Below are positions 27,954-37,623 of a stretch of DNA of 37,694 nt, in pieces. The DNA is from Candidatus Woesearchaeota archaeon (GTDB lineage Archaea > Nanobdellota > Nanobdellia > Woesearchaeales > 21-14-0-10-32-9). Position 1 is the first letter of the stretch; every line of letters begins with the position of its first letter. The stretch spans positions 1 through 37,694 of the forward strand of contig SLQZ01000062.1 in assembly GCA_007131205.1 (NCBI GenBank). Reading direction: 5' to 3'. Under the pieces are notes generated by a model that was not told the origin of the DNA, made no database searches, and saw nothing but the letters and a program-made list of their open reading frames with translations. Made by a program: the position numbers and the translations under genes.

Positions 27954-28107
27954 TCCCTCGGGGGAGACTTTCAGCCAATCCAACCACTTGAAAATGGATT
28001 TGAACTCCCAACCTCTCGGTCTCAGCTGACCTTGTTTCATCCATACCCCTTCGGGCTAGTCACAAGGATTTCTACAGCCGAGCGCTCTACCGTTGAGCTA
28101 CCGAGGG
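27954..28107 (-). tRNA. tRNA-Tyr (anticodon GUA) with two introns (~51 nt at the canonical 37/38 site; ~31 nt between T-loop and 3' T-stem)
   Basis: Exons: CCCTCGG TA GCTC AACGGTA GAGC G CTCGG CTGTAG[51-nt intron]A CCGAG AGGTT GGGAG TTCAAAT [31-nt intron] CTCCC CCGAGGG A. The C1-G72 pair fits archaeal tRNA-Tyr identity. All stems pair once the two inserts are removed. Confidence 0.8.
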
Positions 28108-36524: not shown

Positions 36525-36866
36525 TTATTTCTTTGAGTTCTTTGCTGATTCTAATTCTTCCATGATTTCCTTTTGCAAAGCCTTGGCTTTTTCCTTGACG
36601 GAAGACTCTTGCTTTTCCAATGATTTAATCCTTGATTCCAATAATTGTTTTTTGGACTTTAAATCTTTTTCTAAAACAGCCTTGTCAGCCTTAACCATGA
36701 TATTCCCAACGATCTTGTACGCTTCGCCCGTGGTTTTAATTTCTTCTAGTGCGGACTCCGCCTCTATTAATTGGTTCTGAAAAGACTGCCTTTGAACGCT
36801 TAGCTGGTTGGAGTTCTGCTCAAGCATTGAAAGCCTGTTAATCTTTTCCTCTGTTGCCTTATCCAT
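36525..36866 (-). CDS. pfdB: Prefoldin beta subunit
   Basis: 113-aa coiled-coil / beta-hairpin (YKIVGNIMVK) / coiled-coil architecture. Confidence 0.8.
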   Translation of the reverse strand: MDKATEEKINRLSMLEQNSNQLSVQRQSFQNQLIEAESALEEIKTTGEAYKIVGNIMVKADKAVLEKDLKSKKQLLESRIKSLEKQESSVKEKAKALQKEIMEELESAKNSKK

Positions 36867-37095
36867 TTTTTATCGCTGACCCAGCTTTTTCATAAACAGT
36901 GATTATCTTTGTTATAGTGTTAAGCGCGGAGCGAAGCGCAACGGAATCTTTTGCCTTAACGCTGAACTTCAAAATATTTTTCTCTCGCTTAACCGAGTAC
37001 TTAACTCGCTCATTAAGCATTTCTTTTTGCTCAAATGAAAACAGTGACTCCAAGTGGCCGTGCTCGTCCTGCACGGTTATCTCGGTGTGGATCAT
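36859..37095 (-). CDS. pcc1: KEOPS complex subunit Pcc1-like
   Basis: ~78 aa. FSVKAKDSVALRSALNTITKIITV matches the Pcc1 L.I.A.D..ALR...NS.LR pattern. Conserved position between rpoP and prefoldin beta. Confidence 0.65.
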   Translation of the reverse strand: MIHTEITVQDEHGHLESLFSFEQKEMLNERVKYSVKREKNILKFSVKAKDSVALRSALNTITKIITVYEKAGSAIKNG

Positions 37096-37097
37096 CT

Positions 37098-37235
37098 TCA
37101 CACTGCCTCAACAGTGGTTGAAACAGACCTTCTCTTGAAAACTATTTTCGAGCCGCAATACACGCATCGAATCCTTTTCTTAACCTGGTCCTGGTTAAGT
37201 ATTTTGTTGCAAGAGAAGCACTTATATTCGCTCAT
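37098..37235 (-). CDS. rpoP: DNA-directed RNA polymerase subunit P (Rpo12)
   Basis: Hand translation gives MSEYKCFSCNKILNQDQVKKRIRCVYCGSKIVFKRRSVSTTVEAV*. CxxC...CxxC zinc ribbon with the RC.YCG..I..K.R signature. 45 aa, below the ORF-track cutoff. Confidence 0.8.
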   Translation of the reverse strand: MSEYKCFSCNKILNQDQVKKRIRCVYCGSKIVFKRRSVSTTVEAV

Positions 37236-37263
37236 TTTTTTTCACCTATCAAAAAAAATTTTT

Positions 37264-37482
37264 TTATGCTTTTGAAACCGTGTAAGCCTTGCCTGTGAAG
37301 ACTTTTCCGCATTTGCCGCATTCCCATATTCCTGCGCTTTTCTTTTTTACTTTCTGCGCACTGCAGTATTTGCACTTATATTTTGCTTTTGAAGCCGCCT
37401 CAATATTTGAAAGCTTTTGCTTGACAGTCCTGCCATATCTTACTCCGAATCTCTTTGTTGAGCCACTTGTTTTCTCGGCCAT
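37264..37482 (-). CDS. rpl37ae: Ribosomal protein L37Ae (eL43)
   Basis: TKRFGVRYGRTVKQKL..IE......YKCKYCS...VKKKSAGIWECGKCGKVFTGKAY. Confidence 0.9.
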   Translation of the reverse strand: MAEKTSGSTKRFGVRYGRTVKQKLSNIEAASKAKYKCKYCSAQKVKKKSAGIWECGKCGKVFTGKAYTVSKA

Positions 37483-37515: not shown

Positions 37516-37623
37516 TGGGGCTGCCCGGACTTTCATTAATAATGACTGGTGCCAAAGTATTAGTTTGAACCGGGGGCTTCAGGTCCCAAACCTAAAAGGT
37601 TAGCCAAGCTACCCCACAGCCCC
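37516..37623 (-). tRNA. tRNA-Pro (anticodon UGG) with a ~34-nt intron between T-loop and 3' T-stem
   Basis: GGGGCTG TG GGGT AGCTTGGCTA ACCT T TTAGG TTTGGGA CCTGA AGCC CCCGG TTCAAAC [TAATACTTTGGCACCAGTCATTATTAATGAAAGT] CCGGG CAGCCCC A. All stems pair only if the 34-nt insert is removed. Confidence 0.75.

Follow-up and report, generated by a model that had tools for sequence, protein, structure and literature searches.

Two tRNA genes that lie 9.5 kb apart on the 37.7-kb contig analysed here (the window, which is the whole contig) carry inserts in the T-arm that both end in TGAAAGT directly before the 3' strand of the T-stem, and the locus of the first of these, tRNA-Pro(UGG), raises the question of what the insert represents and why it shares this word with the insert of a tRNA of another identity, tRNA-Tyr(GUA). 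We regard it as very probable that the insert is an ordinary protein-spliced archaeal BHB intron at position 59/60 of the only tRNA-Pro(UGG) gene of the genome, and that the intron of the tRNA-Tyr gene is an independent one of the same build. The host is a tiny DPANN archaeon of the Woesearchaeota type, whose assembly comprises 930 kb in 84 contigs with 41% G+C and a completeness score of 99.94%. A translation GTPase-like protein encoded in the window shows 92% identity to a protein of a 'Candidatus Woesearchaeota' genome obtained from soda-lake sediment, and the other best relatives are all labelled Woesearchaeota, Nanoarchaeota or DPANN.

The T-loop insert of the tRNA-Pro(UGG) gene

Read on the minus strand from position 37623 to 37516, the gene has the DNA sequence GGGGCTG TG GGGT AGCTTGGCTA ACCT T TTAGG TTTGGGA CCTGA AGCC CCCGG TTCAAA[C...34 nt...AG]T CCGGG CAGCCCC A, and the corresponding RNA consists of GGGGCUG-UG-GGGU-AGCUUGGCUA-ACCU-U-UUAGG-UUUGGGA-CCUGA-AGCC-CCCGG-UUCAAA, the 34-nt insert and U-CCGGG-CAGCCCC-A, with UGG as the anticodon (Table 1). 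The insert itself reads C UAAUA CUU UGGC ACCA GUCA U UAUUA A UGAA AG. A first-pass annotation of this DNA had proposed that the T-stem (CCCGG/CCGGG) and the acceptor stem (GGGGCTG/CAGCCCC) form only if the insert is removed, and this proved to be the case with the coordinates exact, as both stems close only without the 34 nt and ARAGORN assigns the excised sequence to tRNA-Pro(tgg). No second match to the exons, and hence no other intact copy, was found in the genome by blastn, so that this is the sole Pro(UGG) gene; the other proline tRNA genes are one for Pro(GGG) on contig C83 and one for Pro(CGG), which is truncated where contig C37 ends.

The MFE and centroid folds of Pro and Tyr, computed either for the whole pre-tRNA or for the T-arm, consist of the 5-bp T-stem, a 4-bp helix and two 3-nt bulges, the T-arm being represented by the fold string (((((((((...[inner]...))))...))))). 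BHB folding of the junctions, suggested as a check in the first-pass annotation, therefore yielded an exact 3-4-3 motif for both introns. In the Pro intron, helix h is the T-stem (5 bp) and helix h' is formed by UAAUA/UAUUA (5 bp). Facing the 5' bulge, a single nucleotide between the inner and the central helix, an A in Pro and a C in Tyr, is left unpaired, and the motif should therefore be regarded as near-strict rather than textbook-strict. A genome-wide scan for BHB motifs, in which each of 96,446 candidates was excised and filtered with ARAGORN, recovers exactly the T-loop introns at 37530-37563 and 27968-27998. Because only 12 out of the 40 related T-loop introns fold into the exact 3-4-3 motif as unconstrained MFE structures, covariation was used instead as the test of the BHB across the relatives.

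The site of the insert follows from the comparison with intronless genes. Intronless Pro(UGG) orthologues read TTCAAAT in the 13 cases with a TTCA loop and TTCGAAT in the 10 cases with TTCG, which makes U60 exonic and places the splice site at 59/60; the T-loop UUCAAAU obtained on excision is the loop of the 13 intronless orthologues having A57. A site at 59/60 had been allowed for in the first-pass annotation, whereas its placement of the insert after the T-loop, or at 60/61, did not hold, because the shared word ends with U60, which belongs to the exon. The 5' bulge is variable at its third letter, in keeping with the intronic nature of that base: it is A in 15, G in 10, T in 7 and C in 6 of the 38 bulges that start with AA (the remaining two of 40 are ACA and AGA). 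The 3' bulge, in contrast, ends with T in 39 of the 40 T-loop introns collected.

Table 1. Positions of the features discussed. Plain numbers refer to the window; G000 is the genome of the window, other G numbers denote other genomes, and C and L numbers denote contigs and loci.
Feature	Location	Strand	Basis or remarks
tRNA-Pro(UGG) gene	37516..37623	-	108 nt including discriminator A73; CCA not encoded; ARAGORN after excision
5' exon	37564..37623	-	tRNA positions 1-59, ending ...CCCGG UUCA AA
BHB intron at 59/60, 34 nt	37530..37563	-	BHB scan and ARAGORN; exact 3-4-3 in MFE fold
3' exon	37516..37529	-	U60, T-stem 3' strand CCGGG, acceptor 3' strand CAGCCCC, A73
Central 4-bp BHB helix, 5' strand (U54 U55 C56 A57 of the T-loop)	37566..37569	-	Fold and covariation at pair 57
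Central helix, 3' strand (intronic UGAA, letters 1-4 of the shared word)	37532..37535	-	Fold and covariation
5' bulge A58 A59 C	37563..37565	-	Probable cleavage after A59
3' bulge A G U60	37529..37531	-	Probable cleavage after G
Inner helix h' and small hairpin cap	37537..37562	-	UAAUA 37558-37562 with UAUUA 37537-37541; MFE and centroid folds
Unpaired A between h' and central helix	37536	-	Fold
Candidate promoter, TATA-box-like word TTTATAAA	37655..37662	-	32-39 nt ahead of the first nucleotide of the mature tRNA; read from sequence
tRNA-Tyr(GUA) gene, two introns	27954..28107	-	9.5 kb from tRNA-Pro; ARAGORN
BHB intron of tRNA-Tyr at 59/60, 31 nt	27968..27998	-	Exact 3-4-3 in MFE fold
Canonical 37/38 intron of tRNA-Tyr, 51 nt	28020..28070	-	ARAGORN i(38,51); blastn of mature sequence; boundary ambiguous by one A
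EndA, sole splicing-endonuclease gene, 205 aa, alpha-type	G000:C70:7507-8121	-	PF01974 and PF02778
Module locus	G005:C29:10446-10512	-	
Module locus	G005:C15 (L165 1349-1591)		
Module loci	G008:C2:39-123; G008:C21:25201-25253; G008:C5 (L167 1384-1583); G008:C34:13777-13834		
Matches of model R1	G133, G082, G122, G119, G149, G144, G077		

In the precursor, the 5-bp T-stem would be lengthened by the 4-bp helix between U54-U55-C56-A57 and the intronic UGAA, and this central helix would lie between two bulges of 3 nt each, A58-A59-C in the 5' strand and A-G-U60 in the 3' strand, with the rest of the intron forming the inner helix. We infer that EndA would cut each bulge once, the first one behind A59 and the second one behind the intronic AG, and that RtcB would then join the exons to restore the normal T-loop UUCAAAU.

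Both proteins are encoded in the genome, RtcB on contig C30 and EndA as the only splicing endonuclease, since a second (beta) subunit was not found in the genome by Pfam or tblastn searches. The best matches of EndA in the PDB are 3IEY_A, the catalytic subunit from N. equitans, and 1A79, the homotetramer from M. jannaschii, and its catalytic Tyr, His and Lys align to those of the M. jannaschii enzyme. As judged from the alignments, the insertion associated with broad specificity (L3 or the lysine-rich loop of the N. equitans type), expected immediately ahead of the catalytic histidine in the C-terminal domain, is absent from EndA, the location of L3 having been deduced from the descriptions in PMC3239211 and PMC5829648: in the alignment with 3IEY_A, the query has 2 + 4 gaps opposite the residues PKKGKRSER of N. 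equitans, and the alignment with 1A79 is ungapped at the site of the lysine-rich insertion. The protein does have a lysine-rich N-terminal tail of 33 residues. Cleavage of relaxed motifs has been tied to such insertions, and alpha4-type DPANN enzymes occurring together with many disrupted tRNA genes are on record (PMC5829648); as the Pro and Tyr introns are close to the strict motif, they do not demand a relaxed specificity. The genome has introns in the D-arm, the anticodon loop and the T-loop of its tRNA genes, yet its EndA is of the kind without the lysine-rich insertion.

The two genes are poorly visible to standard tools. ARAGORN with default settings and Rfam at the gathering threshold matched only tRNA-Lys and tRNA-Asp in the window, ARAGORN with the option -i did not report a tRNA-Pro(UGG) from the whole genome either, and the tRNA covariance model, also run on the whole genome, missed Pro and returned Tyr as a truncated 21-bit match covering model positions 8-63. 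The genome-wide scan for T-loop inserts that had been recommended in the first-pass annotation (T-stem, TTCRA, an insert of 8-200 nt, then stem and acceptor) returned Pro and Tyr only, and a second scan allowing one or two extra BHB excisions returned the same two, all other matches being artefacts over intact neighbouring tRNAs. A self-splicing group I or group II intron was also considered and rejected, given that the ribozyme core of such introns takes up hundreds of nucleotides, that the insert has only 34 nt, and that the Rfam matches in the window are to just two tRNAs.

About a dozen expected tRNA species of this genome are missed by the standard tools. Its unusual loci, at C19:6350-6480, C4:2432-2550, C41:877-977, C78:3117-3243 and C37:9980-10057, include a tRNA-Cys(GCA) gene on C19 with an insert after position 9 in addition to a canonical intron, a gene on C4 that is reported as Tyr by ARAGORN although its tRNA has G1-C72, U73 (Thr-like) and an anticodon arm lengthened by 46 nt, genes for Gly(UCC) and Leu(UAG) with BHB introns at non-canonical sites, and the truncated Pro(CGG) gene.

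The shared junction word

The tRNA-Tyr gene indeed carries its second intron at the same site, as the first-pass annotation had stated. This 31-nt intron reads U CCA UU UUCAA GUGG UUGGA U UGG C UGAA AG and, apart from the common ending, differs from the Pro intron as had also been noted, the alignment of the two interiors being no better than that of shuffled sequences (z = -0.1). The common ending is accounted for by the fold: UGAA pairs with U54-A57, AG stands in the 3' bulge, and the last T is the exonic U60, so that the structure dictates five of the seven letters and leaves only AG free. Since every 59/60 intron needs the complement of the near-invariant T-loop, followed by U60, unrelated introns at this site converge on [U/C]GAA-NN-U, and this convergence explains why the Pro and Tyr inserts share TGAAAGT and nothing else. 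The junction word is accordingly a structural requirement of any 59/60 intron. Of the two explanations offered in the first-pass annotation, the one that invokes a shared determinant recognised by the splicing endonuclease is thus supported, as the word is the 3' half of the BHB and co-varies with position 57.

A view on the T-loop introns of related genomes shows how closely the word follows the loop. Of 31 introns in a TTCA loop, 29 have TGAA as the word. Of 9 in a TTCG loop, 4 have CGAA or CGGA, and CGAA is found in three further Pro introns; the shift from TGAA to CGAA or CGGA with UUCG loops, seen for Pro in several families, represents a compensatory change. Among 22 distinct junctions, 97.5% of the cells are standard pairs, with pair 57 being AU in 12, GC in 6 and GU in 1, and the covariation score of 0.544, compared to 0.207 in column shuffles, was reached by none of 500 shuffles. 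Sliding the 3' partner by one column lowers the pairing to 61-68%. The same ending is also present in T-loop introns of tRNA-Asp and tRNA-Lys from other families of the order.

The two free letters are conserved as well. The 3' bulge (37529-37531 in the Pro and 27967-27969 in the Tyr gene, minus strand) is AGT in 31 of the 40 T-loop introns collected, which comprise these two and 38 related ones, genomes of other orders included, and pairing neither requires the AG nor gives any reason for it; the other BHB introns of the window's genome have TT, AT, TG, TA or GA at this place. Because the intron interiors are saturated with changes, the conservation of AG must reflect selection at this site rather than common ancestry.

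Conservation, alternative readings and a module in a sister genus

Each of the 16 family genomes with an identified tRNA-Pro(UGG) gene has the Pro intron. Of the 19 other families of the order that were resolved, 12 have it and 7 lack it, and it occurs in 2 of 19 genomes sampled outside the order, one of which has a second Pro(UGG)-like locus of unclear structure. Its length ranges from 28 to 89 nt in the family and from 17 to 123 nt elsewhere in the order. Across the family, the identity of the Pro exons amounts to 92-100%. In comparisons between its genera, the value is 96% for the exons, whereas it is 47.7% for the intron interiors, compared to 47.9% for shuffled sequences. Within the genus, the stem of the inner hairpin is kept and its loop changes. 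The distribution of the Tyr T-loop intron is patchy, with 10 of the resolved genomes of the family containing it and 6 lacking it. The canonical intron of tRNA-Tyr behaves differently from this non-conserved T-loop intron, as its sequence is conserved far outside the family, with BLAST matches at 72-76% identity across it in many families of the order; it also contains the words GGAUGA ... CUGA, reminiscent of box C'/D.

The gene order around tRNA-Pro is conserved (36525-37482 of the window, minus strand; L004 795-1472): downstream are the genes for eL43 (L37ae), a protein with a weak match to RpoP, Pcc1 and a prefoldin subunit, and in relatives a Methyltransf_30 (MnmC-like) gene is located upstream. 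A homing endonuclease gene (LAGLIDADG) adjoining tRNA-Pro was not found either here, where only 71 nt separate tRNA-Pro from the upstream end of the contig, or in six relatives. The LAGLIDADG_3 matches in the window's genome are confined to three large proteins and a 254-aa ORF on C61, with none on C12. At two loci from other orders (L202, G172:C39:4320-4680, and L203, G253:C8:78420-78790), the 3' end of an intronless tRNA-Pro(UGG) gene is repeated 69 and 142 nt downstream; the repeated unit of about 16 nt comprises the 3' strand of the T-stem, the acceptor and the trailer, and is a direct repeat of the kind that an integrated element leaves.

In the sister genus g4 (G005 and G008), the T-loop introns tell a different story from those of the window's genome. 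Its Pro and Tyr genes have homologous T-loop introns of 85-89 nt (z = 6.5), and the 59/60 intron of tRNA-Lys(CUU) is homologous to both, with 23 invariant columns. The part common to these introns is a two-hairpin module of about 57 nt, which consists of CAATGGT(T/A)TCGTCCATTGACACC.AAG and a hairpin, and which also occurs within a 171-nt 37/38 intron of tRNA-Gln(CUG) and in two more copies outside any tRNA, each followed by a T-run. The G005 copy outside tRNA genes shows 86% identity to the Pro intron of G005, compared to 75% between the orthologous Pro introns, suggesting a recent exchange. Where the module lies in a BHB intron, it takes up the 5' end, and these introns differ both in position (59/60, 37/38 and D-loop) and in the identity of the tRNA. 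The presence of the module in the Pro, Tyr, Lys and Gln introns of g4 indicates that intron spread does happen in the family. A covariance model of the module (R1) was searched in 151 sampled genomes of the order and matches in 10 of them. The module was observed inside a 37/38 intron of Gly(CCC), directly after the D-loop of a tRNA which also has a 59/60 intron ending in TGAAAGT, next to duplicated 5' or 3' tRNA gene fragments in several families, and as a solitary copy behind a TATA-like word. No Rfam family was found for the g4 module loci.

With these data, alternative readings of the Pro insert may be weighed. The gene might be a decaying pseudogene, or the insert an expansion that stays unspliced, and the rejection of the locus by the standard tRNA finders would agree with that; but it is the sole Pro(UGG) gene of a nearly complete genome, its exons are preserved across the family while the insert is free to diverge, a conserved BHB that shows compensatory change borders the insert, and the synteny with the eL43, RpoP, Pcc1 and prefoldin genes located downstream is kept, all of which makes this reading highly improbable. 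Even less can be said for a coincidental sharing of the 7-mer, which could be entertained only as long as just two sequences of the window are compared: the comparative data refute it, since the word ends T-loop introns of Pro, Tyr, Lys and Asp in many genomes at the frequencies given above for AGT and for TGAA with TTCA loops.

The mobile-intron-like spread offered as the other explanation in the first-pass annotation requires a more differentiated answer, as it is supported in the sister genus g4 but not for the two introns of the window, which share only the forced word. That the latter are one intron copied between tRNA genes, with TGAAAGT as an ancestral remnant, is compatible with the BHB explanation, to which it adds a shared origin, but appears rather unlikely to us. 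The homology of the Pro, Tyr and Lys(CUU) introns in g4 and the occurrence of the module in the Gln(CUG) intron and outside tRNAs argue for it, as do the patchy Tyr intron, which fits repeated gain, and the retention of AG in the bulge although pairing does not need it. However, the interiors of the Pro and Tyr introns are no more alike than shuffles, and neither of them has another copy in the genome, where only chance-level short matches were found (a 16-nt match on C43 lies in ordinary sequence) and the g4 module was not detected. The conservation of AG is attributed to selection, given that even orthologous Pro introns have diverged to the level of shuffles; for the same reason, the lack of similarity between the Pro and Tyr interiors is uninformative. 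A related and similarly doubtful idea is that the 59/60 introns of the order are seeded and moved between tRNA genes by a small mobile RNA cassette, represented by the module of about 57 nt; the Pro and Tyr introns of the window would then be its decayed descendants, and AG would be needed by the cassette or its partner.

Relation to known archaeal tRNA introns

Introns at 59/60 as such are already known, and what is added here is an account of why the junction word is shared, the finding that the Pro intron is kept throughout the family and largely throughout the order, and the module of the sister genus. The site 59/60 is among the listed archaeal intron positions, and the BHB is known to restrict part of the intron sequence (PMC4090602). 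In ARMAN-2, tRNA-Cys and tRNA-Pro(GGG) have introns at 59/60, the former of which was cleaved in vitro by the host endonuclease (PMC3239211). That system resembles the present one in the T-loop site, the ultrasmall DPANN host and the BHB-type splicing logic. It differs in the enzyme, which is of the three-unit epsilon2 type with a specific loop in ARMAN-2 and a single 205-aa alpha-type EndA without a lysine-rich insertion here, in the tRNA species and intron lengths, and in the motif, since its Cys intron forms a relaxed hBH, in contrast to the nearly strict 3-4-3 motif described here. A survey that included one Woesearchaeota genome linked the combination of an alpha4-type EndA with many disrupted tRNA genes to the L3 insertion (Kaneta et al., 2018; PMC5829648). 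The DPANN lineages with an alpha4-type EndA share with the present genome the single alpha-type gene and the many interrupted tRNA genes, but the EndA described here has no insertion at the place of L3 and a lysine-rich N-terminal tail instead.

Non-canonical and multiple introns and their 'intron transposition' have been described for Crenarchaeota, in particular Thermoproteales (Marck and Grosjean, 2003; Sugahara, 2008; Fujishima, 2010), as far as these studies are summarized in PMC4090602. The Thermoproteales likewise have BHB introns at many positions including 59/60 and, according to the same account, homologous introns in tRNAs of different identity and position, as is the case in g4. 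They belong to a different phylum and are reported there to use a heterotetrameric endonuclease, and the window's genome, unlike theirs, is without detectable similarity between introns. Another parallel is the tRNA-Trp intron of Euryarchaeota, which carries a box C/D small RNA according to a report cited in PMC4090602. As a structured small-RNA module within a tRNA intron, it resembles the g4 module and not the introns of the window; in contrast to it, the g4 module lacks recognisable C/D boxes and an Rfam match, and it is not found in the window's genome.

The requirement of the BHB explains the likeness of the 3' ends of unrelated 59/60 introns and guards against reading such junction words as signs of mobility. 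The g4 module represents a concrete and testable case of sharing between tRNA introns outside the Thermoproteales. A single T-loop intron has been retained across an archaeal family and much of its order, with its interior evolving freely. The T-loop introns hide two essential tRNA genes, those for Pro(UGG) and Tyr, from ARAGORN and from the tRNA model of Rfam, and quality measures as well as inferences on codon usage for such DPANN genomes would wrongly count both tRNAs as missing.
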